Positions 41,717 through 64,000 are shown, counted from the stretch's first letter. The stretch: 64,000 nt of DNA from an uncultured Rickettsiales bacterium (GCA_964504165.1 CAZDDH010000017.1:103-64102), one strand, 5' to 3'. Notes: generated by a model not told the origin, from the letters alone. Made by a program: numbers and translations.

Positions 41717-41774
41717 GGCACGACCCCTTCACGGTGCACCCCGGCCCAGACACCGAGGAACTGGCCCTCCACAC

Positions 41775-41960
41775 ACGTGAACCCACGCCCCGAACGAACC
41801 GAACTCCCCGGGTGACGCGCCACCCCCCGAGCTGGGTTCACCACACGAACCCAACTCCCGAGGTGAGGCCTCACCCTCGCAGAACGGTTCACCACACGAA
41901 CCCAACTCCCAGGGTGAGGCGCCACCCTCGGAGTACGGTTCAGGGCGCCACCCTCCCCGG
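41775..41960. repeat. About 3.5 tandem copies of a ~51-nt repeat (GGTTCACCACACGAACCCAACTCCC[GA]GGTGAGGC[CG]CCACCCTCG...) between the lipoprotein gene and tRNA-Arg
   Basis: Units 2 and 3 (41834-41885, 41886-41936) are near-identical. Unit 1 is diverged and unit 4 is partial. Each unit contains a GC-rich hairpin. Confidence 0.8.
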
Positions 41961-42114
41961 GCCCCACCGTCCGAGCCAAAACGCCTCGGCGGCCACCGCG
42001 CCCGTGGTCCAGGCTGAGCTTGCGCAATTGCCGTACCGACCCACCTCATCCCCCCAAACCGAATGACATTCCCCCCTGGACATCACCGCCGCTTCGAGTA
42101 CGATCGCCCCGAGT

Positions 42115-42191
42115 ACGCCCGTGGCTCAGCTGGATAGAGCAACGGACTTCGGATCCGTAGGTCGCAGGTTCGAATCCTGTCGGGCGTGCCA
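42115..42191 (+). tRNA. tRNA-Arg: tRNA-Arg (anticodon TCG)
   Basis: Hand-folded cloverleaf: acceptor ACGCCCG/CGGGCGT, D-arm GCTC-AGCTGGATA-GAGC, anticodon arm ACGGA-CTTCGGA-TCCGT (TCG at positions 34-36), T-arm GCAGG-TTCGAAT-CCTGT, discriminator G and an encoded CCA. Confidence 0.85.
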
Positions 42192-42395
42192 CCTTCCAGA
42201 AATCGAAAAAATCCACAAATAACCGCCACTTGGCGATCTGGTTCCTCCTTCCGTTGAACCCCCATATGATCCCCGTTTTTGCGATCCGGGGGAGTTCTGG
42301 GGGAGTTCTCATCGACTACTGAACAACTGAACAGTCTTCGGTGCGGGTTGGGAACTACCTGGCCTGAGGGTGGGGAGTTGGGTCGTAGAGACCCC

Positions 42396-43485
42396 TCAGC
42401 GGCCCCGCTTCTGCGTCATCGGGATCACGTCCGCTGCCTGTCGCTTGCCACCGATGCTCAGCTTGGCGATTGCCTGTCGCATGTGGTCGCGGTTGACGTG
42501 GACGTACTTCATCGTCGTCTTGATGTCGGCGTGACCCATCAACTTCTGGAGCGTCGGGATGTCCATTCCAGCCATCACGGCGTGACTCCCGAAGGTGTGC
42601 CTCAGCGTATGGATGCAGGCCCCTTCGATGCCCGCCGCCGCGTAGGTATCCTTGAGGTCCCGATAGAAGTTGTTCACCAGGGGTGTCCCTTCCTCGGTCA
42701 CGAACACTTGCAGCGGTAGTTTGCCGAACCTGGCCTTCATCGCCAGCCGATGGTGCCGCAACGTTTCGACGGCCAGATCATTGAGATCTACGATCCGTTC
42801 CCGGTGGCTCTTGGTGTGCTTTTTGCCCTTGTGTCGGACGCTCAGGATCTCATGCTTGAGATCCAGATCCCGCCACTCCAGCCGTTCCATCTCGCTCTTA
42901 CGGATGCCCGTGTTCAGCATGATGACCACGACCGCGTAGAGCCGGTCGGGGACGGCGTCCATCAGGGCGCCAATCTCCTCACTAGTCAGCCACCGCATCT
43001 CCTTGACGTTCTCAGTCAACCGCTTGAGTCCAACCAGCGGGTTGTGCGGGATGATCTCCCACTCCACGGCCTTGGTCAGCATGTGGCTGATGACGCCGAT
43101 ATCGAGGTTGACCGTCCTGGGCTCCACGGTTCGCAACCGTTTTGTCCTGAACCTATCGGCCATCCGACGGTTGATACCCACAAGCGGGCAATTGCCCACA
43201 TGTGCCACCCATGTTTGAACACTCAGTTTGTCCCGCTTCAGAGTGGCAGGTTCCTTGTGGGCTTCGGCCCAGGGCAGGTACTCATCATCTGCGTAACGAC
43301 GGACGGTGATCCGGCGATCATAGTCAGGGTGCTCGACACCAAGATGGTGATCCTTGATGGCTTCAGCCAGAGCACGTTGGGCCTCCGGTTTGGTTCGTCC
43401 GCCACGACGCCTTTTGCGTTTCCCATCCACCATGATCAGGTAGTACCAAAACTTCCTGTCCTTTCTGTAAAAGACCGTTGCCATT
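42396..43485 (-). CDS. Tyrosine-type site-specific integrase (phage integrase family)
   Basis: ATG at 43485 with RBS GGAGGTG. The C-terminal catalytic region 'HTLRHTFGSHAVMAGMDI...LMGHADIKTTMKYVHV' carries the R..H..R..Y signature. It lies immediately 3' of tRNA-Arg. Confidence 0.9.
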
Positions 43486-43569
43486 ACGGCACCTCCAGCC
43501 GTCGTCGCCGTACTGGAAGGTGGCTGCAGCCTAACAGCAGCTCGTGGAAGCAGACCAGCTTCACCCCCC

Positions 43570-43797
43570 TCATCGCAGGCGTCCTCCGACGAGTCGGATC
43601 CGCTGGACCGCTCCCTCATTCTCGATCCACTCCTCGATCTCGTCGCTCGGGAACAGGAGCCGCCTGCGCAAGCGGCGAACAGGGATCTCCCCCTGGGCCG
43701 CGAGCTTGTAGATGGTGGCCTTGGAGAGTCTGGTCAGATCGACCACCTCGTCCGTGGTGATGTACTTCCGTTTTTTGCCGTGGTTCTTGTTGGGCAT
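43570..43797 (-). CDS. Excisionase / AlpA-like HTH DNA-binding protein
   Basis: 75-aa protein 'YITTDEVVDLTRLSKATIYKLAAQGEIPVRRL', typical of Xis/AlpA-family HTH proteins. It is adjacent to the integrase. Confidence 0.7.
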   Translation of the reverse strand: MPNKNHGKKRKYITTDEVVDLTRLSKATIYKLAAQGEIPVRRLRRRLLFPSDEIEEWIENEGAVQRIRLVGGRLR

Positions 43798-44230
43798 AGG
43801 CCCGATCTCCCAAGGCCTGCCGTGCTCATCCGGGGATGAGCGGCAGCAGGCCATCAGGGAGAGGCGGACCCGAACCGAACGATTGGCGGTCCCCGTGCCC
43901 CCCGCAGGGCACATGTTGGGGTGCCTTACCTCCGAAGAGGCTGTCGGCCCGTTTCGGGATCATCTCCGTAAACGTCGTCGGCTCCATGCCCAGCAACATG
44001 CTGGAGAGGAACCCCCGATAGTTCTAAGAAACGCAGGAATGGCGGAGGGCGAACCCCCCTCCGAGCAGAAAGTTGATCGAGAATTGGGCCCTTAACCAGC
44101 CGTCACCCGCCGTCGCCTCTCGCTGTGGCAGATGAGCGACCGTGCCGCCGTCACCGGCCCCGCAGGCGGGTGGCGATGTTCAGGTTGATGGTGGTGTGGG
44201 GTGAAGGCGTGGCGAGTGAACCGGCGCGAC

Positions 44231-45439
44231 CTACTTGCGCCGTCTGCGAGAAACGACGATCCCGATCAAACAGAACAACAACAGCACCTTCGCGGGCTGT
44301 GGGGGACTGATGGCAGTGGAGGAGCACTTACAGCCCTGACAGTCGGGCGAGCCTTCGCAGTCGCTGTCGTCGCAGTCGAACAGGCCGTCCATGTCGTTGT
44401 CCGCCCCGTCGGTGCACTCACCGGGTTCGTCGCCCTCAAAGGCATCATCGTCGTCCTGCGAGTCGTCGTCGTCCCCGGTGTCGTCATCGTCCGTCGAGTC
44501 GTCGTCGTCCGCCGAGTCATCGTCGCCCGCCGAGTCATCGTCATCATCGTCGTCATCACCAGTGCAGTCGGAGTCCTGGATGTCGATGTCGCCGTCGCAG
44601 TCGTTGTCGATGCCATCTCCGCAATCTTCAGCAACTCCGGGATTTACCGCTGCATCGTAGTCGTCGCAGTCGCCGCCGTCGGTGCTGTAGTCGTCGCAGT
44701 CCAGGTCCAACGCCCTGGCAGCGTAGAGCATTGCGTTAGCTAGCAGCCGGGCGCCGTCCGTGTCCGTATCCCAACATGTGGAGTGGTAGTCCTCGGACGC
44801 GGCGACCATGTTCAAAGCTACGACCCTGCCGGGCGCGGGCTGGTGGGTGGCAACCAGTAGTTCGCCGTTGTCCCAGGAGGCCACCTGGGCAGCACCAGGA
44901 ACGACGGTTGGGCAGCATGAGTGCGAGCTGTTCTCACCACCGTTGAACGTGATGACCCCATCGAGGATCGGGTGGTTGGGGACGTCCGGGACGAGCCACA
45001 TGAAGGAGCCCATGCTGCCGCTGTAGGCAGGTGTCACCGGGAAGTAGCCATCGTCACGGAATCTACCCTCGATGGCCACATTGTTGCCCGTGTCGTAGAA
45101 CATTTCTCCGGCCAGCACCACGCCACCGCCACCATCGATGTAGTCCGCAAGGTCGTCCCCAAGGTCCTCGTGCTCGAAGTATCCAGAGCTGCCTGAAATC
45201 ATCACGGCGTCGTAGGACTGCATCTCCGCGAGCGTCGGAGTGTAGTAATGGATGGTGTGCGCGTAGACCGTGGTGAATAGCCCCGTGCTCATCAGCTTGG
45301 ACTGGATGTCGTACCACGCTGCGTCTGGCGAACCGTAGATGGCCACGTCTGTACCGGCAGCTGGTTGTGGTCCCAGCAGGACCGATATCGCCACCAATCC
45401 AACGAGCCCCGATCTTCTGATTCCAGATCTTGTCCCCAT
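44231..45439 (-). CDS. Secreted ThuA-like/GATase1-like domain protein with one MopE-like repeat, a long poly-Asp stretch and a MYXO-CTERM-like tail
   Basis: Signal peptide. 'YDAVMISGSSGYF...YIDGGGGVVLAGE' is ThuA-like. 'DCDDYDAAVNPGVAEDCGDGIDNDCDG' is a MopE repeat. The tail 'QGCKCSST...LLLFCLIGIVVSRRRRK' is MYXO-CTERM-like. Confidence 0.6.
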   Translation of the reverse strand: MGTRSGIRRSGLVGLVAISVLLGPQPAAGTDVAIYGSPDAAWYDIQSKLMSTGLFTTVYAHTIHYYTPTLAEMQSYDAVMISGSSGYFEHEDLGDDLADYIDGGGGVVLAGEMFYDTGNNVAIEGRFRDDGYFPVTPAYSGSMGSFMWLVPDVPNHPILDGVITFNGGENSSHSCCPTVVPGAAQVASWDNGELLVATHQPAPGRVVALNMVAASEDYHSTCWDTDTDGARLLANAMLYAARALDLDCDDYSTDGGDCDDYDAAVNPGVAEDCGDGIDNDCDGDIDIQDSDCTGDDDDDDDDSAGDDDSADDDDSTDDDDTGDDDDSQDDDDAFEGDEPGECTDGADNDMDGLFDCDDSDCEGSPDCQGCKCSSTAISPPQPAKVLLLFCLIGIVVSRRRRK

Positions 45440-45838
45440 AGATTCCTCCCCTTCAGCATCAGTACATCACGCGGCCAACGACGTGTCGAGAACTCGGTCG
45501 AGGCGATCGGGGGCACGTATTTGAAGGTGACGGATTTCATCGTCAGGAACACCGACCGGCCCCGCAGGAGGGTGGCGGGAGCAGGGCGTTGGGCGAGGGA
45601 CACGGGTGGGTGGATGTCGTCACGATGTAAGGGGATGGAGGCATGTCTGTGTGACAACTAGCTGTAGGTGCAGACCACAAGTAAGCTCAACTAGATCTGG
45701 AGAAAGCCGTGACCACTGACAGCGAAGCAGCCGACAGGCATTTTCTTGCCCTCTGGCGCCGGGCTCTCAACGAGCCGTCACTCGATACCCTCACGCCACC
45801 CCTGATCTCGTCCTGGGCCACAGACCGGGGGCTCACCG

Positions 45839-55189: not shown

Positions 55190-56224
55190 CTACCTGTCGT
55201 CGCCCTCTTGATCACTCCGCAATATGAGGACAAGCCGGTACTTGTCCTCGCCTCGCATCCACCTGACGAGGGCGTACCTACCTTTCGACCGCCTGTACAG
55301 CTCTAGGCGGATATCTCCGGCAGGGTGGTGCTTGACCAAACATCGCAGGTATTTGACGCGGAACTCGGCCCTGCGGACGCCTCCTGTGGAGATTGCGGAC
55401 ACGGCACCGAGGCGGGTCGTCATGCCCGCCACTTCGATGTAGACGTCGTCGCCATCGATGTGGACGGCAACTCGGTCTAGATTCTTCGGACCACGCAGGC
55501 ACTGCTTCAGACCACTCTGGTCCAGGGTGACGACGGTCGGATCCTTGCCAGCGTCCACATTGAGCAACGGGAACGAGTCGATTGGTCTGGCTATGCCCAG
55601 TTGGACGCCATCTGGCACAGCCAAGAACGTCCCACTTGAATGCTCCCTCACGGTTACGACCTCGCTCCGGAAAAGTCGGAGCCACTGGGCAACCGGCGCG
55701 ACGTCCTCTTGCCGGACGCTCATCGCGATTCCCATCAGACCGTGCATGTCCACGGTTGCGACCACCCATTTGTCGCAGGCCCACAGCGTGCCGTCGATAA
55801 TCTCCACCTGCGCGGTTCCAGGATGGATGGGGCCTTTTCTGGATGCGAAGTCCGCCCCAAATCGGAGAGCGGCGCGGAGACGGTCGCCCTGGATATCGGC
55901 CACAGCAACGGACTCAGAGTACGATCTATCCCAGAATGGCCAATGGTCGCCGTCTGGCTGTTCCAAGCGGCCAACAGTTTCCCCGACGACGATGCTGGAA
56001 GGCCCGATAGCCACCCTCGCGCCCCGGTCCAGTACGGGCTTCCCACCGGCATACAGGGCGGACGCGGGAACGTATACGTGCCGATGGAGCCGGAGGCCTG
56101 GGACCGGGGCCGAGGCGAACAACCAACCATTGGTCGCGAGCACCGCGCCATCCTGCAGGACGAGGTAGGGCTGTTTCTTGGGATTGACCGCTGGCTTGAC
56201 CATGGCGAGGGCATCCGCCAGCAC
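55190..56224 (-). CDS. Hypothetical protein; possible sliding-clamp (DnaN)-like fold (tentative)
   Basis: 'VLATNGWLFAS' resembles the beta-clamp 'LVATDGHRLA' motif. Apart from that it is unassigned. Confidence 0.35.
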   Translation of the reverse strand: MLADALAMVKPAVNPKKQPYLVLQDGAVLATNGWLFASAPVPGLRLHRHVYVPASALYAGGKPVLDRGARVAIGPSSIVVGETVGRLEQPDGDHWPFWDRSYSESVAVADIQGDRLRAALRFGADFASRKGPIHPGTAQVEIIDGTLWACDKWVVATVDMHGLMGIAMSVRQEDVAPVAQWLRLFRSEVVTVREHSSGTFLAVPDGVQLGIARPIDSFPLLNVDAGKDPTVVTLDQSGLKQCLRGPKNLDRVAVHIDGDDVYIEVAGMTTRLGAVSAISTGGVRRAEFRVKYLRCLVKHHPAGDIRLELYRRSKGRYALVRWMRGEDKYRLVLILRSDQEGDDR

Positions 56225-56305
56225 ACCGCCGTCGCAAGTGCCTTCGTCGTTATCCTCGCCCCGGCCATCCCCGTCAACGCCCCCGACCGGGGCCGGCGGA
56301 GCCTG

Positions 56306-57988
56306 TCAGGTACCGTTCCGGAATTCCGCCTCTCCTACCGAGAGATGGCGTTCAAGGATCTGGACGATCTTCTCGCTGTGTTCCCGCCTTGAGGAGTTTC
56401 GCTGGCCTCGGGTCAACCCAGCCCACCGCCCTGACTCCTTTAATTGTCGAATCCTGCCATCACAGTATTGTTTGATGATCCGGTCGGTTTCCAGCAGGAG
56501 GCGGGTGGTTTCCTCAATGACTGGCATGTCGCCGCTCGCCACGACGGTCTTCCCGGAGTCCCGCGTCTCGCAGCCGTGAAGTCTGCACAGCAAGTGGACG
56601 AGCTGTCGCCTCCACGCGACGTTCGGTTTGATGGGAATCTCCGAGGCTGTGGCCCCAGCTCCCACATCCCTGCGGTCGCTCCCTACCTTTCTCCGAATCC
56701 AAATCGACATCATCCTACCCATCTCCTCTGGCGACTTCGGCTGGTTCATCTCCTCGAAGTCCGGCACCGGGTCGTCGTGGTGTTGTTTCTGGCAATCCGT
56801 GAGATGAGTCACCGATGCATCCCGCACCTCATCCTCTGGGGGCAACGAGGTGGTCGTAGTGGAATCGCCGCGCCCGCCGGGGACCAGCGTGAGAGCCGGG
56901 GTTTGGATGCCACAATCCACCCGACCCGGTGCGGCTTTCGCCACATCGTCGCACTTTCCTACCACCGTGGACCTCGCTCCCGTCTTCGGCTGCTGCTTCG
57001 GATTGGGCTTCGCCTTCGGCTTGGACGCCGGTTTCGCCTGTGAGGTGCCAGGTCCCTGCAAGGCTACTGCCACGGCGTCTAGCAGCTTGGTTTTCGCCGC
57101 TGCGGGACGCTCACTGTACGATCCCCCAATTCGCACCAGGGTGGGTGCCTCCTTCTTCGCGACCAACTGCCAGATCTCGATGTCGTCCCCTTCCACACGC
57201 CGCAGCAACACCGAGCCGGGCAAGACGTCGCGCCTACCGGACCCGTAGATGTAACGGGCCGGGGAGCCATCCCAGGACAGGTTTCGGGTCGCCTTTTTTT
57301 GACCGGAGGCCTTGTGGCTCGTGATTGCCGTGACGACCTCCCAGCGGTCGGTGTCCGCGAGTTCCGGGACGTCCACCTCCACCGCCCGTGCGGTCGCAGA
57401 CCTCAACTCCGTGACCCAGTTGGCGCTGAAATTTGCCCACATCTCCAGGTCGCTGGTCTCGCCGTCCTCGGCCAAGCGGTTGAGGAGCTTGCCGATGTGC
57501 TCAGACCGTTTCTTGACCTCCTCATCGTGGGTTGGTGGGGGCTTGGGCTCGACTTCCTCGTCGGGGTCCGTTCCGTTGATGCGGCACTTGAACGTGGCGT
57601 GCAGGCTCTCGTAGGAACGCCTCATGTCGGCGGCAGGAAGCGTCACTTCCTGCTCGACCGCCTCCTGGTACGTCCGTGCCGTCTTCAAGCAGGTGCGGAT
57701 CTGACGGTCGGTCAGGTCGTAGCCTAGTGGCTTAGACCTTTGCCACTGTTGCAGCTTGCCCTTGGGGACGGTTTCCGACTCCTGGAGCAGCAGGAGATCC
57801 CTCCGTAGGTACTCGGTGTTCGCAGCGGCCCTCACACCGTACTCCTTGGTCTCCACAATATCGATCCGTCTACGGGACGCCTCCGCCTCCTTCTCGGTGT
57901 CTCCGAGGGCTGGGTGTTTCTTCATCGCCGTCGCCAGCAATTCTGGGATGGTTGAGGATCCCTTGGTCTTGGTCTTGCCCGTGGTCAT
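56306..57988 (-). CDS. Hypothetical protein (about 560 aa)
   Basis: Long ORF (likely start MTTGKTKTKG) with a charged, coiled-coil-like N-terminal half. No known domain. Confidence 0.4.
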   Translation of the reverse strand: MTTGKTKTKGSSTIPELLATAMKKHPALGDTEKEAEASRRRIDIVETKEYGVRAAANTEYLRRDLLLLQESETVPKGKLQQWQRSKPLGYDLTDRQIRTCLKTARTYQEAVEQEVTLPAADMRRSYESLHATFKCRINGTDPDEEVEPKPPPTHDEEVKKRSEHIGKLLNRLAEDGETSDLEMWANFSANWVTELRSATARAVEVDVPELADTDRWEVVTAITSHKASGQKKATRNLSWDGSPARYIYGSGRRDVLPGSVLLRRVEGDDIEIWQLVAKKEAPTLVRIGGSYSERPAAAKTKLLDAVAVALQGPGTSQAKPASKPKAKPNPKQQPKTGARSTVVGKCDDVAKAAPGRVDCGIQTPALTLVPGGRGDSTTTTSLPPEDEVRDASVTHLTDCQKQHHDDPVPDFEEMNQPKSPEEMGRMMSIWIRRKVGSDRRDVGAGATASEIPIKPNVAWRRQLVHLLCRLHGCETRDSGKTVVASGDMPVIEETTRLLLETDRIIKQYCDGRIRQLKESGRWAGLTRGQRNSSRREHSEKIVQILERHLSVGEAEFRNGT

Positions 57989-58357
57989 CTCGCACCTCCT
58001 TCGTGCCGCGAATCCCGGCGTTCGCTTCGGTCCATTACGCGGATGAGCTGCATCCGGATCCATGGCCCGACCGCTAGCCCCTCGCGGGCGGCATGGTCAG
58101 CGATACGGCCCCGGAGGTCATGTGGCATCAGCACCGCGATGCGGACAGTTCCCGTGTTCTGGTTGTTGGTGTTCGATGTGCTCATGGTGTGCCTTCCCTT
58201 CATAGTAACTACGCGGCCAAGAGGCCCATGAAACACCCTGTTTGGGCTTTTCTTGGGAATTCGATGCACACGACGTGTGCGCCGCTGTGGCATGGGGTGG
58301 GCGGGCCGCCATCGCGGAGGTCGCGGTGGTCCGGGAACGCCACCATGGGCGGGATGG

Positions 58358-59644
58358 CTAGGGGATCTTCGCCACGCGGACTCGCCCGGTCATCAGGGCG
58401 GTGACGAGAACCGATTTCGTATGGACCAACTGGGAGAGGCCGTCCAGCTCCCGCCTGAGCGTCGTGTCCATCGCCTCGATGGTGTCCACCAGGTGGGCCT
58501 GCTCGTCAGACGGTGGCACCGGTATCCGGAGGTCCAGTAGGTCCCTGTGGTCGATGGAGCATTGGGCCACGCCCGGCTTGGCGCGGGAGCGGAGATGGTG
58601 TCGTGCGGCGGGTCCCGCGAGGGCCAGGGCGAGGTACCTGGGACACAGATCACTTTCGGACGACAGCCGAATGCGAATCAGGTTCGAGTCGTGAACGAGA
58701 GTCTCGTTGCTCTCCCCGACGACTCCCACGTCACCAAGGAACCTCAGGCTAGAGACCCGGACAACGAGGACATCCTCCTCAACCAGTCCGAACTTGTCGA
58801 TGTCGCTGTCGGTGGCCGCGATCCGTCGCAGCCCGGAGACGTCGATGGACGCCCCGTCCGCGACGGAATCGGCCCGGACGACAGGGACGCCGTCGTCGCA
58901 GGCCATGGCCCGGCGGAGGCCGTTTCTTATGCCACCCGGCTCCAGGAACTCACCCAACCTGGCCATCTGCCACCCGACGGGTAGATCCCCTCGTATCTCA
59001 ACAGAAGATCGCGTGTGCGAGGCTGCGGCACCAACGGCCAGCAACTCTGCAAGTAGCCCCCCACGGACCCGACGGGTCTGCTTCACGACCTCCTGCCCTG
59101 CCTCGATGGCCCCGTCCACGGCCGCGAGGGCTGTAGCGATCTTCTGCTGCTCCGCGAGCGGGGGTTGGAGTACCGGGAGGGCCAGCAGTCGGGGGCGGGT
59201 GATGCCCTGCGATGCCGTGCCGGCGACATGGGCCGACAGTCTCCTTTGGAACGGCGCGGCCAGGAGCTGTTGGACGAGGAAGTCACTCGATACGGCGGTC
59301 GGGTCGGCCCGGAGCAAGACCACCCGTTGGCCCAGCATGTAGAGACGGTCGTCGGGAACCATTGCTACACGACCCGGCGGACTGCCGGTCGTGACTATGA
59401 TGTCCCCTTTACGGCACCGCTCACCAGCCATCCATCGTTGGTAGACTTCGTCCGTCACCCTCAGGGTCTTGGACGATACGATCAGCTTCCCCGCCCTGAT
59501 CTCTGAGCTGGTCAGGACGGGAACGCCGTTTCCGTCGCCGTAGGCCAGGTCGCCCCGCCTGATCGATCTGCCCCTGCGATCAATGATGTTCTGGACGACC
59601 GCCCCCAGCGGAGACTGGGTCCAGCCGTGGGGCGAATCAGCCAT
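58358..59644 (-). CDS. hsdS: Type I restriction-modification system specificity subunit HsdS
   Basis: Two target-recognition-domain halves separated by the conserved 'LPPLAEQQKIA' spacer, with a repeated 'PPSDEQ' conserved region. Confidence 0.85.
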   Translation of the reverse strand: MADSPHGWTQSPLGAVVQNIIDRRGRSIRRGDLAYGDGNGVPVLTSSEIRAGKLIVSSKTLRVTDEVYQRWMAGERCRKGDIIVTTGSPPGRVAMVPDDRLYMLGQRVVLLRADPTAVSSDFLVQQLLAAPFQRRLSAHVAGTASQGITRPRLLALPVLQPPLAEQQKIATALAAVDGAIEAGQEVVKQTRRVRGGLLAELLAVGAAASHTRSSVEIRGDLPVGWQMARLGEFLEPGGIRNGLRRAMACDDGVPVVRADSVADGASIDVSGLRRIAATDSDIDKFGLVEEDVLVVRVSSLRFLGDVGVVGESNETLVHDSNLIRIRLSSESDLCPRYLALALAGPAARHHLRSRAKPGVAQCSIDHRDLLDLRIPVPPSDEQAHLVDTIEAMDTTLRRELDGLSQLVHTKSVLVTALMTGRVRVAKIP

Positions 59645-59739
59645 CCAACCCCAGATCTCGAAGGATGCGGTTCATTCGGACCTCGGCCTTGTACTTCATC
59701 CTCCAGGGCCGCTGGGCCAACACGTATACACCCATAGCC

Positions 59740-60471
59740 TCAAACAGCACGATGATCCCCTTCCCACTGTTCCAGCATGAGTTTCCGCTCCGCCCAGTCG
59801 GGCATCGTCGTCGCCAACAATCTCCAGAACTCCGGGGAGTGGTTCCGATGTGCCAGGTGGGCAACTTCATGGGCGACGACGTACTCCATCGCAGCGGCGG
59901 GAGCCTGTATCAGCCTCCAGTGAACCCGGATGATCCTGTCCCGCCCGTTCGAGCCCCACCGGCCCTTGGCCTCTGAGAGCCGATAGCCCTCCGCCTTGAT
60001 ACCCAGGCTGGCCTCATGGCGTCGTCCAAACCGAAGGAGGTCACGTCGGGCTCTCTCCCGGAGCCAGAGATCGAACCCCGTCCGGATTGCCTCCAGCTTC
60101 TCCACGCCATCCAACCCCTGCGGGACCACGACGTGGAACTTCGACCGGCAGGTGATCTCCACAGCCGCCACGTCCCCCACCTGGACGTCGAGCATCAACC
60201 ATCGTCCCCGGTACTGAAGTTTCGCTCCGCTGGCGTACCGCTGGGTCAGCAGCTTCCGGTGTTTCTCCTCAATCTTCCGAACCGAGTCGAAGACCCACCG
60301 CCGCTTGCCTTCCACGTAGGCCAGGAGGCCGTTAGAGCCGTCCCAGGGCGTCCCAGCGGGGGCAACGACCTCGACGCCTCCCGGAGTCACCACGATGCGT
60401 TTGCGGAGGGCCTTCTGCGAGTACCGCACCTCGTAGGGAATGGTCGTGTTGCCGATGGTCAGGACGGACAT
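59740..60471 (-). CDS. M48-family/DUF45 (YgjP-like) zinc metallopeptidase associated with type I R-M loci
   Basis: HExxH 'HEVAHL' and the DUF45 N-terminal pattern (MSVLTIGNTTIPYEVRYSQKALRKRIVV). Its start overlaps the upstream stop (TGATG). Confidence 0.7.
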   Translation of the reverse strand: MSVLTIGNTTIPYEVRYSQKALRKRIVVTPGGVEVVAPAGTPWDGSNGLLAYVEGKRRWVFDSVRKIEEKHRKLLTQRYASGAKLQYRGRWLMLDVQVGDVAAVEITCRSKFHVVVPQGLDGVEKLEAIRTGFDLWLRERARRDLLRFGRRHEASLGIKAEGYRLSEAKGRWGSNGRDRIIRVHWRLIQAPAAAMEYVVAHEVAHLAHRNHSPEFWRLLATTMPDWAERKLMLEQWEGDHRAV

Positions 60472-61202
60472 CACAACCTTCTCCGGTACTGCTCTAGCCA
60501 TGCCGGGACTGGCATGCGGGTGGTGGCTCTGAGCACCGACGCCCAGTTCTCCCGGACCTCGTCGTAGCCCCACCCGGCCGGCGCATAGAAGTAGACGGGG
60601 TGGGCGAGGCCGTAGAGGGTGTTCAGTACCTTGGTGGACTCGTTGTCGGGTTCATCACGCACGGCATGGCGTAGGAGTCGCTTGAAGGCCGCCTGCGTAC
60701 CGCCACCTGACAGGATCACGCTCTGCGGCGGATGAGCCACGAACTCTTCGATCAGGATGGAGCGTGAGACCTCTCGCATCTCGTCGTCCGCAGACGACCA
60801 TGCCTGTCCCGCTGGAGCGGCCCCCCGGTACTTCAACACGTCGGTCACCCGCGTCCGGGGCAGCATGTCGAAGTCAGAGAGTAGCTGGTAGAGCTGCCGC
60901 ATACCGTGGTGCTGGTGTCGATTTGGTGAGGGACGCATGGTCACGACCCACACCACCGGCTCAATGGGAACGCCGACACTGCCCAAGAAGCCATCGAAAT
61001 CTCGGACATCGGCTGCGTTGGTGGTGTACTTGCCAAGCTGGAGGCTGTTGAGGACGTCCTCGGGATCTAGTCCTTCCGCCACGAGTTCGTCGGGGTCTAG
61101 TCCCCAGGAGGACAGATCGGCACCGGAACCCTTCGGCCACCACCATGGATGGTAGGGACGAGGCCGTGACGCAAAGGCTCTGAGAAGGTCTCGGTGCATC
61201 AT
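60471..61202 (-). CDS. Hypothetical protein lying between hsdR and the M48 peptidase
   Basis: The ORF starts right after the hsdR stop. No confident domain. Confidence 0.4.
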   Translation of the reverse strand: MMHRDLLRAFASRPRPYHPWWWPKGSGADLSSWGLDPDELVAEGLDPEDVLNSLQLGKYTTNAADVRDFDGFLGSVGVPIEPVVWVVTMRPSPNRHQHHGMRQLYQLLSDFDMLPRTRVTDVLKYRGAAPAGQAWSSADDEMREVSRSILIEEFVAHPPQSVILSGGGTQAAFKRLLRHAVRDEPDNESTKVLNTLYGLAHPVYFYAPAGWGYDEVRENWASVLRATTRMPVPAWLEQYRRRL

Positions 61203-64000
61203 GGCTTGCTGTAGTGGATGACTGCGTAGTGCTCGACCGCCATGGGCACCGTCTTCGCCCACCCCTCCAGTCCCAGGTCCTTGATCATCCGTCTCACCTG
61301 GCCCCGGAGCCCTTTCTTCATCTGGTTTTTCTCCTGCCAGTGGTACGGGGCGGTTTCATCGGACGTGTACAGGGCGTCGATGGCAAGAGCCGCCTGCTGG
61401 AGTGCCGACAGGCCGGAGACTCCCTCACCTTCGCTCCCGTAGGAAGGCGGTTCGGACTCGCCCACGGCCTCCGGCTGCTTCTGGAACTTCTCCAGGATGG
61501 CGTGGATGTCGAAGGCCCGCTCGTTGAGGCCGGAGCCCTGGTGGGCCTCGTCCTCCTCCACGACCCCCTTGGCCACCTCCTCGGTCGCATCGAGGGCGTC
61601 CTGGGGTTTCAGCAGCCCCGCATTGAACTGCTTGATCAGCTCCTTGATGCGGTCGGAGAATTTCTCGTACCGGGCGGGGTTGTTGGCAGCCCGCTCCGAG
61701 GTCTCCTTCTTCAACTCCGCGAGCTTGCGGACGGCGGCGGTCTTGATGTCCACGGGGCCACCGAAGTCGTCCCAGAAACCGGGGTCTGAGAGGCTCCGTA
61801 GCTTGCAGACGGTCCTCAGCCCGGTGACATCCAGGTGTTCATCGAGCATCTCGCGGATCTTCTCGGAGTATTTCTTCCAGTCGGTCTCCTCGACCTGCTC
61901 AAATCTCTGGCGCCCCAATGGCAGGGTGACGGAGAGCCGCTTCAAATCCACCTGGTAGGCCAGGACACGGGGGTCAGGTGACAGGGTGGCGTAGGCTTTG
62001 ATGAAGGCGTCCAGACCGGCCCTGTACACGTACCAGGCATCCTCGGTGCCGAGGTGGTCGAGGATGGCCTTCCAGTCGTCCTTGGGCTCCAGGTCCGCTG
62101 GAACCCCATCGATCAGGTCCATGACGGCATGGTGGGCCGCACGGAGCTTGTCGGCAAGCTCGTCTTGGTCGTGCATCGCAGAGGCCACGTCCTCCTTGCG
62201 GTATGCAGCCAGGGCCTCGTTGAGCTTCTTGGACACCCCGATGTAGTCCACGATCAGGCCGTGGTCTTTCCGCGTCCCGTACCGCCGATTCGTCCGGGCG
62301 ATGGCTTGCAAGAGGTTGTGGTCGGTCAGCGGGTTGTCCAAGTACATCGCCTGCTCGATGGGGGCGTCGAAACCCGTCAGGAGCTTGTTGCAGACGATCA
62401 CGAACCTGAGAGGGTTGTCCGGATCGAGGAATCTGGGCACCCAGATGGGGGTGACGTCCTCTGGCGGAATTTGGTACGTGACGAGATCTGGGTACTGCTC
62501 TCCATCGTGCTGGCCGGGGCTGTAGACGCAGATCGACATCTTCCCGGCCCGCTCCTGGGCATCCTCTTCGGACAACCCATCCTTCTTCTTCAGGGTCTTG
62601 GCGATCACCCGGTCGAGGGCCTTCTTATAGGCCACGCACGCACGCCGGTCGATGGCACAGACCTGGGCCTTGAACCCGTCAGGCATGACGTGTGCCCGGT
62701 AGTGAGCCCAGATGTCCACGGCGATCAGGTCAATGCGGGGCTGGAACCGGGACAAGTCCCCCTTCGTGACCCCACGGTTCTTCAACTCCTCGATGACCTC
62801 ATCGGGCTCGTTCGCGAACCACTGGTCGAACAGGACATCGATCTTCTTGTCGTGCAGGTGCCACTCGGTCTTCCGGCCCTGGTAGTAGATGGGCACGGTG
62901 GCACCATCGGCCACGGCGTCATCGATCCCGTACTTGTCCAGGTACGCTTCACCGGGGGCACCGAAGTTACGGAAGGTGTCCTTGTCCCCCTTCTTGACCG
63001 GGGTGCCCGTGAAGCCGAACCGTACGGCGTCGGGGAGGATTGCTCGGACGTAGGCACCGAGATCCTTCTCTTGGGTGCGGTGGGCTTCATCCACCATCAA
63101 GATCCAGTTCTCCGACCCTTCAACCCCCAGTTCTTTCAGGGCGGTCTCACGTTCCTTCTTGACCCTGGATTTCAACCTCGGGTCGTCCCAATGGAACTTG
63201 AAGATGGTCGAGATGACCGTCCTGCCAGAGATGCCGGGGGCCACGACCTGACGGAGCTTGAAGATGGACTCGGCCGAGATGGGATTGGGAAGCCCGCACG
63301 CCTCAAAGGTGGAGGCGATCTGGTTGTGCAGGTCGATGCGGTCGGTGAGTACCAGCAGGTTGGGGTTCTGAAGCCGATTGCTGGCGATGCCCCGGTGGAA
63401 CTTGAGCTTCAGGGCGGCGAACACCATGGTCAGGCTCTTGCCGCTGCCCTGGGTGTGCCAGATCAGTCCCGCCCGGTGCTGGCCATCGATCACCCGCTCG
63501 ACCATCTTGTTCACGGCCCGGAACTGCTGGTAGCGGCAGACCTTCTTGACGGTCTTGCCGTCCCGAGTCTCGAACACGATGAAGTGGGCGAGGATGTCTA
63601 GCAGCCGGGACCGTTCCAGCAGGGCGTAGAGCCCCTTCTCGGTCTCGTCAGTGAACTCCTCGGCCTTACGAGGCCAGGGATCACGCCACCGGAACCAGAA
63701 TTCCGACGGGGCCCCTGTCGCCCCGTAGAGGAACGTCATGTCGTTGGTGGCTATGGAGAACAGGTTGGGGTGGAAGAGCCGGGGGACTTCCCTCTCGGCG
63801 GAGTGAACTTGGTCGATGGCGTCGAAGGCATTCTGGCTGGGATTGATCGGACTCTTGGCCTCGATGACCACCAGGGGGATGCCGTTGACGTAGATGACCA
63901 CATCGGGCTTGCGGACGACCTCGCCCTGGACGCGGAGCTGGTTCGTGCAGGCGAAATCGTTGTTGTTGATGTCATCGAAATCGATGACCCGGATGGTGCG
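61199..64000 (-). CDS. hsdR: Type I restriction enzyme R subunit HsdR; its N-terminus runs beyond the window end
   Basis: 'GLIWHTQGSGKSLTM' Walker A. DEAH-like 'LMVDEAHRTQ'. 'GFTGTPV'. 'QAIARTNR' motif VI. The ORF is open to the window edge. Confidence 0.9.
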   Translation of the reverse strand, partial: RTIRVIDFDDINNNDFACTNQLRVQGEVVRKPDVVIYVNGIPLVVIEAKSPINPSQNAFDAIDQVHSAEREVPRLFHPNLFSIATNDMTFLYGATGAPSEFWFRWRDPWPRKAEEFTDETEKGLYALLERSRLLDILAHFIVFETRDGKTVKKVCRYQQFRAVNKMVERVIDGQHRAGLIWHTQGSGKSLTMVFAALKLKFHRGIASNRLQNPNLLVLTDRIDLHNQIASTFEACGLPNPISAESIFKLRQVVAPGISGRTVISTIFKFHWDDPRLKSRVKKERETALKELGVEGSENWILMVDEAHRTQEKDLGAYVRAILPDAVRFGFTGTPVKKGDKDTFRNFGAPGEAYLDKYGIDDAVADGATVPIYYQGRKTEWHLHDKKIDVLFDQWFANEPDEVIEELKNRGVTKGDLSRFQPRIDLIAVDIWAHYRAHVMPDGFKAQVCAIDRRACVAYKKALDRVIAKTLKKKDGLSEEDAQERAGKMSICVYSPGQHDGEQYPDLVTYQIPPEDVTPIWVPRFLDPDNPLRFVIVCNKLLTGFDAPIEQAMYLDNPLTDHNLLQAIARTNRRYGTRKDHGLIVDYIGVSKKLNEALAAYRKEDVASAMHDQDELADKLRAAHHAVMDLIDGVPADLEPKDDWKAILDHLGTEDAWYVYRAGLDAFIKAYATLSPDPRVLAYQVDLKRLSVTLPLGRQRFEQVEETDWKKYSEKIREMLDEHLDVTGLRTVCKLRSLSDPGFWDDFGGPVDIKTAAVRKLAELKKETSERAANNPARYEKFSDRIKELIKQFNAGLLKPQDALDATEEVAKGVVEEDEAHQGSGLNERAFDIHAILEKFQKQPEAVGESEPPSYGSEGEGVSGLSALQQAALAIDALYTSDETAPYHWQEKNQMKKGLRGQVRRMIKDLGLEGWAKTVPMAVEHYAVIHYSKP

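Follow-up and report, generated by a model that had tools for sequence, protein, structure and literature searches.

A probable integrative island at a tRNA-Arg gene of an uncultured Rickettsiales bacterium carries a type I restriction-modification system and a candidate new reverse transcriptase module

Many P4-type and integrative mobilizable islands carry defence genes, and besides tRNA genes the tmRNA gene is another classic site for such elements. Reverse transcriptases (RTs) involved in defence have repeatedly provided new biochemistry, including de novo gene synthesis (DRT2) and protein-primed homopolymer synthesis (DRT9). Three groups of methylase-linked RTs, UG36, UG25, and UG35, have been described (Mestre et al. 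2022, PMC9226505). Here, we analyze a stretch of 64,000 nt from an uncultured Rickettsiales bacterium (GCA_964504165.1 CAZDDH010000017.1:103-64102; referred to as the window, whose numbering is used throughout), in particular the region 42115-64000, which begins with a tRNA-Arg(TCG) gene and contains a tyrosine integrase gene, genes of a type I restriction-modification (R-M) system, and a cassette that encodes a helix-turn-helix (HTH) protein, a partner protein, and an RT. The region to the right of the 3' end of tRNA-Arg(TCG), at ∼42.19 kb, is very probably an acquired, non-autonomous integrative island of at least 30 kb with defence cargo and a candidate new RT module. The island itself is of an ordinary kind and joins the R-M-bearing islands anchored at tRNA genes, here in an uncultured high-GC bacterium. 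What makes it valuable is its RT cassette, which combines a rare RT family, an intact active site, a new C-terminal domain, and a constant upstream partner with a position in no current class of defence RT.

The left junction of the island was apparent from gene prediction and from base composition. ARAGORN detected only one tRNA in the window, tRNA-Arg(tcg), and Rfam agreed on its identity and position (Table 1). When calculated in 2-kb intervals, the GC fraction was 0.70-0.73 between 32 and 42 kb and 0.58-0.65 in the remainder of the window; in 400-bp intervals, it dropped from 0.67-0.69 to 0.58 across 41.8-42.2 kb, i.e., at tRNA-Arg. Overall, the left side of this gene had a GC fraction of 0.680 and the right side one of 0.621, and the switch occurs within ∼200 bp of tRNA-Arg. 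GC at third codon positions (GC3) switched at the same point, with a mean of 0.897 (range 0.81-0.94, n = 25 genes) on the left compared to 0.750 (n = 18 window genes) on the right, so that the two sides were almost fully separated (Mann-Whitney p = 5e-10). Sequence beyond position 64,000 was taken from metagenome contigs that overlap the window, and its positions are given as window equivalents, up to ∼72.1 kb. This extension retained a low GC content (0.57-0.63), and its 11 genes had a mean GC3 of 0.731. The shift is far beyond chance, and a composition like that to the right of tRNA-Arg marks DNA of foreign origin that has still to ameliorate to its host.

The first gene 3' of tRNA-Arg, at a distance of 205 bp, encodes a tyrosine integrase and is followed by an excisionase-like gene, both with clear domain matches (Phage_integrase, 2.4e-31; HTH_17, 2.3e-14). 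A sequence-only reading of this DNA had placed these two genes directly 3' of tRNA-Arg(TCG) and had noted a drop in GC from ∼70% upstream, and all three statements are borne out. The catalytic residues of the integrase were recognized in the translation as R (NTGIRKSE), HxxR (HTLRH), and H and Y (GHADIKTTMKYVH), and the enzyme looks functional by this measure. Its identity to the integrases of temperate enterobacterial phages, namely phage 186 and its relatives, is ∼30%. The tRNA-Arg(TCG) gene is presumed to be the integration target and the left attachment (attL) junction. By analogy with the known behaviour of islands whose tyrosine integrases act on tRNA and tmRNA genes, a circular form whose attP site duplicates the tRNA gene's 3' part would have recombined with the chromosomal tRNA-Arg by means of the junction integrase, and the adjacent HTH_17/AlpA-type protein would direct excision.

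Short repeats surround the junction on both sides. In the non-coding segment between tRNA-Arg and the integrase gene, TRF and further repeat and motif scans identified the tandem 11-mer GGGGGAGTTCT, present twice at 42288-42309, and GGGGAGTTGGGT at 42372-42383; these sequences may be arm-type sites for the integrase. Four of the five occurrences of the motif GGGGAGTTB in the window are within 600 bp of tRNA-Arg, and the motif was not enriched towards the opposite limit of the sequence obtained. On the host side, just 5' of tRNA-Arg, three tandem 51-nt repeats (41794-41942) are unique in the window, and each contains the palindrome GGTGAGGCGCCACC flanked by GAACC...GGTTC. The repeats also carry, in inverted orientation, a close relative of the motif found to the right of the tRNA, namely GGGGAGTTC in unit 1 (41801-41809) and GGGAGTTGGGT in units 2 and 3. 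The intergenic region 41717-42114 that includes them folds with z = -4.1.

The sequence to the right of the window was recovered by several routes. An exact-protein look-up with HsdS2, the second specificity subunit of the R-M system, yielded contigs from JGI, ENA, and Logan assemblies that overlap the window by up to 15.6 kb with 99.99-100% identity. Besides the metagenome of Ga0105013_1002634, those under ERZ23498660, ERZ23498639, and SRR8062320 contain this lineage. The window makes up nearly all of its own source contig, as the NCBI contig with the left-flank protein has 64,137 bp. The JGI contig Ga0105013_1002634 reached window-equivalent position 72,068, and a second contig added 45 bp. 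A homologue search together with a contig look-up led only to the end of the 37-kb contig already recovered and to a 5.7-kb contig, both of which ended at ∼72.1 kb, and a 93-kb JGI contig stopped within hsdM. Independent JGI, ENA, NCBI, and Logan assemblies were interrupted either within hsdM (∼65-67 kb) or ∼160-210 bp past the last gene, which encodes 227 aa (∼72.1 kb); this pattern suggests strain heterogeneity or a repeat at both break points. A 367-kb contig with an hsdM fragment was considered as the rightward continuation and was rejected because it derives from an unrelated organism. Scanning metagenomes with the 302-aa protein at the right end gave no match.

With the extended sequence, the type I R-M system is complete. 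Two contigs (L001 and L009) that are 100% identical to the window in the overlap contain HsdM, HsdS, and HsdR, all intact, and the operon order is hsdM (HTH-fused), hsdS1, hsdR, the gene for a 243-aa protein, the YgjP-like gene, and hsdS2. The N-terminal truncation of hsdR is only apparent: the frame is open to base 64000, where the window edge cuts the gene, and encodes 1033 aa in the identical contigs. At its N-terminus, HsdM has an HTH_3 domain of the XRE type (7e-14) ahead of HsdM_N and N6_Mtase, an unusual regulator-methyltransferase fusion. The two specificity subunits are 29% identical (blastp). No inverted or direct repeats were detected between hsdS1 and hsdS2 or around the serine recombinase gene located further left in the island, and on these grounds an hsdS shufflon and a resolvase-driven invertible segment were rejected. 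A YgjP gene also adjoins type I R-M genes in a related locus (L024, described below). The rest of the cargo that had been listed, i.e., a serine recombinase, HTH proteins, many ORFans, and hsdS together with hsdR, was recovered with matches to the Resolvase, Methylase_S, and HsdR domains. The earlier view of the region as an integrative island is thus supported by the tRNA anchor, the composition switch, the junction integrase and excisionase, and the completed R-M system.

No phage structural, packaging, or replication gene was detected with Pfam or PHROGs in the visible island (42-72 kb), and Pfam and NCBIfam revealed no relaxase, type IV secretion system (T4SS), FtsK/TraB-type transfer protein, or replication initiator in the same range. 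With no phage structural or conjugation genes visible, the island looks like a non-autonomous element, possibly a mobilizable one, and not like a prophage or integrative and conjugative element (ICE). For the visible part, prophage identity was rejected on the basis that none of 10 ORFans matched PHROGs and that the RT family was absent from IMG/VR and from phage records. The ORFans of the island had no match in Pfam, NCBIfam, PADLOC, or PHROGs. Among the four large ones, two had no PDB sequence match whatsoever and two gave weak matches (best E = 0.0018) to unrelated proteins, none of them credible.

The RT cassette lies between the serine recombinase region and the R-M operon. The sequence-only reading had proposed an RT pair at this site; one RT stands (RVT_1, 2.1e-12), and the second gene instead encodes a partner that is not an RT. 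The RT retains motifs 1-5, including an intact Y(L/V)DD, preceded by a conserved N-terminal extension of ∼100 aa (alignment A1), and it is predicted to be catalytically active. In an AlphaFold2 model that was generated from an eight-sequence alignment, the RT with its thumb (residues 1-415) and a conserved C-terminal alpha/beta domain (555-802) are confident, and the linker that joins them (416-554) is disordered. When the RT part of the model was submitted to Foldseek, the nearest structure was the group II intron RT GsI-IIC (2e-13), followed by G2L4 and DRT9. The C-terminal domain (555-802) had no Pfam or PDB sequence match. This domain (profile positions ∼540-776) was also found by profile search in many proteins of 160-340 aa (P0088-P0142), which may be contig-truncated fragments or a stand-alone version of the domain.

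A homologue of the partner was present directly upstream of the RT in 13 of 13 distinct loci with upstream sequence. The partner stop codon overlaps the RT start codon by 4 nt (gccATGAgc, with ATGA at 52639-52642), and the two genes are translationally coupled. Four motifs are conserved in the C-terminal half of the partner (RPPxxAVRxAAE, vLxxExGHxxaAQaLA, DAVVxNLP, and GGxLvvxGD), and their order recalls that of gamma-class N6-methyltransferases (motifs X, I, and IV and the strand after motif IV); the counterpart of motif IV is degenerate (NLP, GLP, GIP), with no aromatic residue. The PADLOC model mad2, which represents the predicted methyltransferase of MADS (bioRxiv 10.1101/2023.03.30.534895), matched one of four partner members (E = 5e-4). 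The partner gave nothing against Pfam at E ≤ 5 and nothing against PDB profiles, and its comparison with HsdM and an N6_N4 methyltransferase by hhalign was not significant (probability <1%). We treat a methyltransferase-like fold of the partner as a hypothesis only, given the non-significant Pfam, PDB, and hhalign results and the missing aromatic residue of motif IV.

The first gene of the cassette encodes a small HTH protein that is 49-50% identical to the HTH protein upstream of the RT pair in a related locus (L012), and an HTH_17 gene occupies the same cassette position in three other sets of loci (L013, L019, and P0156). The gap between the HTH and partner genes (51174-51343) contains a long imperfect hairpin of ∼85 nt with a minimum free energy of -67 kcal/mol (z = -3.7). 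The hairpin is not conserved, as the HTH gene (in L012, a small open reading frame (ORF) after the HTH gene) abuts the partner gene in L012, L013, and L023.

The RT family is rare and well delimited. A word-indexed search of 5.8 billion proteins returned eight clusters, and a profile search run exhaustively against 1.84 billion representatives identified ∼96 representatives (50%-identity clusters) at E ≤ 1e-30, with a clear gap from there to generic RTs at ∼1e-10. The family was absent from IMG/VR, GenBank phage records, and PLSDB plasmids. PADLOC models for defence-associated RTs (DRT) and unknown-group RTs (UG) matched only weakly (E = 1e-4 to 1e-9), and the matches were confined to the palm motifs; the best DRT-class models were UG21 for the query RT (2.9e-7) and UG19 among the eight family members (2.2e-9). 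The top PADLOC model was the one for CRISPR-associated, group-II-like RT (1.4e-16). UG36 was not among the best 25 of the 45 families reported, with the existence of a UG36 model in PADLOC presumed from how the models are numbered. The PADLOC retron models did not match the query RT and matched three of the eight family members weakly. Judged from these profile scores, the family appears to fit no PADLOC DRT/UG class.

Comparable searches addressed the other well-known types of RT. TIGR04416 matched the RT with an E value of 2.6e-11 and a score of 43 bits, compared to a cutoff of 300. Rfam at E ≤ 1 over 41.5-64 kb returned the tRNA and two chance matches only, with no intron or retron RNA, and no direct repeats of at least 30 nt occur in 47-59 kb, so no repeats like those of diversity-generating retroelements (DGRs) are present. 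On the strength of the Rfam and repeat searches, group II intron, retron, and DGR identities were rejected for the RT. The cassette may be equivalent to a minor group in existing RT classifications; no published description of it was found.

Homologous cassettes were examined in their genomic neighbourhoods. Locus L013 contains an integrase (33% identical to that of the island), Xis, a resolvase (49%), the HTH protein, the partner, and the RT, followed by Cas3 and Cse1. In L023, the order is integrase, TetR, resolvase (55%), N6_N4 methyltransferase, HTH, partner, RT, and a type ISP enzyme, and in L024 it is resolvase (46%), N6_N4 methyltransferase, HTH, partner, RT, YgjP, hsdR, hsdS, and hsdM. 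L012 has HTH, partner, and RT genes between a large methyltransferase gene and genes for Abi_alpha and a type I-like R-M system. Directly 3' of a tmRNA gene, L029 and L030 carry AbiEii, HTH_17, resolvase, partner, RT, and type I R-M genes, and the GC fraction drops from 0.70 to ∼0.6 at this tmRNA. The P0156 loci comprise an XerC-like integrase, Abi_C, a D12 methyltransferase, HTH_17, the partner, and the RT. R-M, Abi, or Cas genes are beside the cassette in seven of the eight contexts with long flanks, and a DNA methyltransferase or R-M system is beside it in six of these eight. The related loci come from unrelated bacteria, and the variety of their neighbourhoods implies that the cassette moves on several kinds of mobile backbone. 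Two further repeats were noted in these loci: at the tmRNA junction of the related island (L029, 1566-2064; L030, 1390-1888), a triple repeat of CGTGTACCAA just past the tmRNA terminator, and, to the left of the L013 integrase gene (L013, 84-2263), three adjacent genes that encode highly repetitive proteins, 70-94% identical to each other over the repeated segments.

A defence function is documented for the R-M system only; the RT cassette and the ORFans are candidates by association. From its neighbours, the RT cassette is most likely an accessory anti-phage module. A more specific proposal is that the HTH-partner-RT cassette (50943-55047) constitutes an undescribed defence system in which an RT lineage outside the UG/Abi group, retrons, DGRs, and group II introns acts with an obligate partner of degenerate methyltransferase fold and is functionally coupled to DNA methylation or restriction; we put this forward tentatively, as a serious possibility that falls short of being probable. 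An RT lineage that is consistently located beside methyltransferases and R-M systems would offer a concrete target for phage-challenge and cDNA-product work.

The remaining features of the island are listed with those above in Table 1. The 402-aa and 426-435-aa ORFans have GC3 values of 0.70-0.76. Orthologues of the small serine recombinase (46-55% identity) precede the RT pair by 2-3 kb in L013, L023, and L024. Immediately after the recombinase stop codon, the 13-nt unit CATGCCAGCAACC is present three times (49112-49149); this array may provide binding sites for the recombinase or a regulator. In the extension, an HTH_3 regulator and six more ORFans are encoded beyond hsdM.

Table 1. Features of the tRNA-Arg island, with positions in the window or, where stated, in contig L009
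Feature	Position	Strand	Evidence
tRNA-Arg (anticodon TCG), encoded CCA end	42115..42191	+	ARAGORN; Rfam tRNA model, 69.3 bits
Non-coding junction between tRNA-Arg and integrase gene	42192..42395	.	TRF; repeat and motif scans
Tyrosine integrase; longest ORF 407 aa, gene-called 42396-43484 (362 aa) in identical contigs	42396..43619	-	Phage_integrase, E = 2.4e-31; weak Arm-DNA-bind_4
Excisionase-like HTH_17/AlpA protein; gene-called 43570-43797 (75 aa) in contig L008	43570..43914	-	HTH_17, E = 2.3e-14; AlpA (Phage_AlpA), 5e-4
ORFan, 402 aa	44231..45439	-	No family match
ORFan, 426-435 aa	45839/45866..47146	+	No family match
156-aa ORF	Between the 426-435-aa ORFan and the serine recombinase		
Small serine recombinase (resolvase/invertase type, C-terminal HTH), called 241 aa, or 215 aa from 48451	48373..49098	+	Resolvase, E = 4.6e-44; HTH_28
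ORFans of 159 aa, 165 aa, and 119 aa	49253..50644	+, -, -	Gene calls in identical contigs; no family matches
Small HTH_17/excisionase-family DNA-binding protein, 76 aa, first gene of RT cassette	50943..51173	+	TIGR01764 'excise', 6e-4
RT partner, 432 aa, no known domain	51344..52642	+	Alignment A3
Reverse transcriptase, 802 aa	52639..55047	+	RVT_1, 2.1e-12
ORFans of 337, 560, and 66 aa, tail of the minus-strand gene run that starts with the R-M operon	55190..58185	-	Gene calls; no family or PDB matches
hsdS2, second type I specificity subunit, 428 aa	58358..59644	-	Methylase_S, 1.7e-15; PADLOC Specificity_I, 6e-46
YgjP-like metallopeptidase	59740..60471	-	YgjP-like, 2.2e-43
243-aa ORFan inside R-M operon	60471..61202	-	No family match
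hsdR, type I restriction subunit, continues past window end; 1033 aa in identical contigs	61199..64000	-	SWI2_SNF2, 2.9e-66; HSDR_N; T1R_D3; REase_I, 1e-97
hsdS1, 397 aa	Beyond 64000; L009 5427-6620	Same as hsdS2	
hsdM, 580 aa	L009 6610-8352 (∼65.5-67.2 kb)		N6_Mtase, 7e-100; HsdM_N

Several observations weigh against an acquired and mobile defence island, or against parts of that reading. The 3' 25-mer of tRNA-Arg has no repeat in the window, either exact or with up to three mismatches, in keeping with the earlier statement that the right att repeat is not inside the window. No attR was detected in the extension, where blastn-short with 42100-42420 up to ∼72.1 kb returned chance matches of 9-14 nt only, and the tRNA 3' end was not repeated across the fetched loci either. 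Since the low GC content continues to ∼72.1 kb without such a repeat, 30 kb is a minimum for the length of the island. The accessible genomes and contigs yielded no empty tRNA-Arg site. A scan of species-representative genomes with the 816-aa left-flank protein gave two homologues in metagenome-assembled genomes (59% identical, no tRNA nearby), and the contigs with the exact left-flank protein or its 90% cluster all carried the island as well. Integration at tRNA-Arg is well supported but not proven, because no strain with an empty site was found. Nor is present-day mobility supported by the six contigs (JGI, ENA, and Logan), in which the island is 99.99-100% identical and never absent. With regard to the RT cassette, the evidence for a defence role is its gene neighbourhood alone, and in one context (L014/L022) the gene pair adjoins only a Mu-like transposase and host efflux genes. 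In addition, the GC content of the island is uneven, at 0.58-0.60 for 42-49 kb compared to 0.63-0.65 for 49-64 kb, and the island may be composite.

This internal step at ∼49 kb would fit two or more elements stacked at one tRNA, a small int-xis element (42.2 to ∼48 kb) and a separately acquired resolvase-RT-R-M block (∼48 to >72 kb), and the block of resolvase, HTH, partner, RT, and R-M genes does recur with different integrases or none (L024; L029 and L030, with other junction genes; P0156, with the XerC-like enzyme). We nevertheless consider such stacking unlikely: no copy of the tRNA 3' end or att-like direct repeat was found between the two parts, and L013 and L023 carry a homologous integrase and resolvase in the order seen in the window (integrase 33% identical in L013; resolvase 49% and 55%), a shared order that favours one coherent backbone. 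That neither attR (in 30 kb) nor an empty site was found, and that the island is the same in the six contigs and wherever a sample contained the flank, could also be explained by a fixed defence hot spot beside the tRNA that is no longer mobile, with a relic or domesticated integrase and an eroded right end. That explanation is quite unlikely in our view, as neither the integrase ORF, which has its full length and a complete set of catalytic residues, nor the Xis-like gene is damaged, and GC3 (0.75 vs 0.90) shows no amelioration; moreover, the samples probably represent one population, so their identity says little about fixation. A prophage, a phage satellite, or an ICE (including the actinomycete type, AICE) with structural or transfer genes further to the right is highly improbable. 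The island does run to ∼72.1 kb without a recognizable right end, several assemblies break there in a manner that fits a repeat or variable region, and the integrase has its ∼30% identity to enzymes of phage 186 and related temperate phages, but 30 kb of sequence contain no capsid, terminase, relaxase, FtsK/TraB, or T4SS gene, the 10 ORFans have no PHROG match, and the RT family is missing from IMG/VR, phage records, and plasmids. The acquired, non-autonomous island remains the preferred account of the region.

For the RT cassette itself, the competing explanation is that it serves the mobile element, for example in replication, maintenance, or retro-mobility, rather than host defence. The cassette is always on mobile backbones and is tied to the conserved resolvase and the excisionase-family HTH protein, and the RT matches no validated class of defence RT, all of which would be consistent with such a role. 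However, the type of backbone varies, with tyrosine integrases from more than one family, a Mu-like transposase, or no such enzyme, and what stays constant next to the cassette is the presence of DNA methyltransferases and of R-M, Abi, or Cas genes. Neither group II intron RNA nor a retron or DGR repeat accompanies the RT. Service to the element is decidedly improbable on this evidence, and an accessory anti-phage role is preferred.

Compared with known systems, the locus most closely resembles, as a whole, the tyrosine-integrase islands of tRNA and tmRNA genes, such as P4-type and integrative mobilizable islands. It shares with them an integrase and Xis-like gene abutting the tRNA 3' end, an abrupt shift in GC and GC3, and R-M and defence-type cargo, and a related island is located at tmRNA. 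It differs in that no attR or att core was found to ∼72.1 kb and no mobilization, replication, or transfer genes were recognizable, and its integrase is only ∼30% identical to characterized phage integrases. The R-M operon resembles type I operons with a YgjP-like peptidase in having HsdM, HsdS, HsdR, and the YgjP-like protein encoded on one strand, and is distinguished by the XRE-type HTH domain on HsdM, the divergent hsdS2 after the YgjP-like gene, and three ORFans after hsdS2 on the same strand. For the RT cassette, the closest published analogy is provided by UG36, UG25, and UG35 (PMC9226505), with which it shares a large RT with an unknown C-terminal region, a location in defence islands, and, if the partner does have a methyltransferase-like fold, the type of adjacent gene. 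Model scores do not support membership in these groups: the PADLOC scores are weak, the methyltransferase assignment of the partner lacks statistical support, and no alpha-repeat domain is predicted. In sequence (TIGR04416, 2.6e-11; GsI-IIC, 2.5e-4) and in fold according to Foldseek, the island RT is closest to group II intron, G2L, and CRISPR-associated RTs. Unlike these enzymes, it has no associated intron RNA detectable by Rfam and no maturase or endonuclease domains, and it possesses a 100-aa N-terminal extension, a disordered linker of ∼140 aa, a novel 250-aa C-terminal domain, and an obligate upstream partner.

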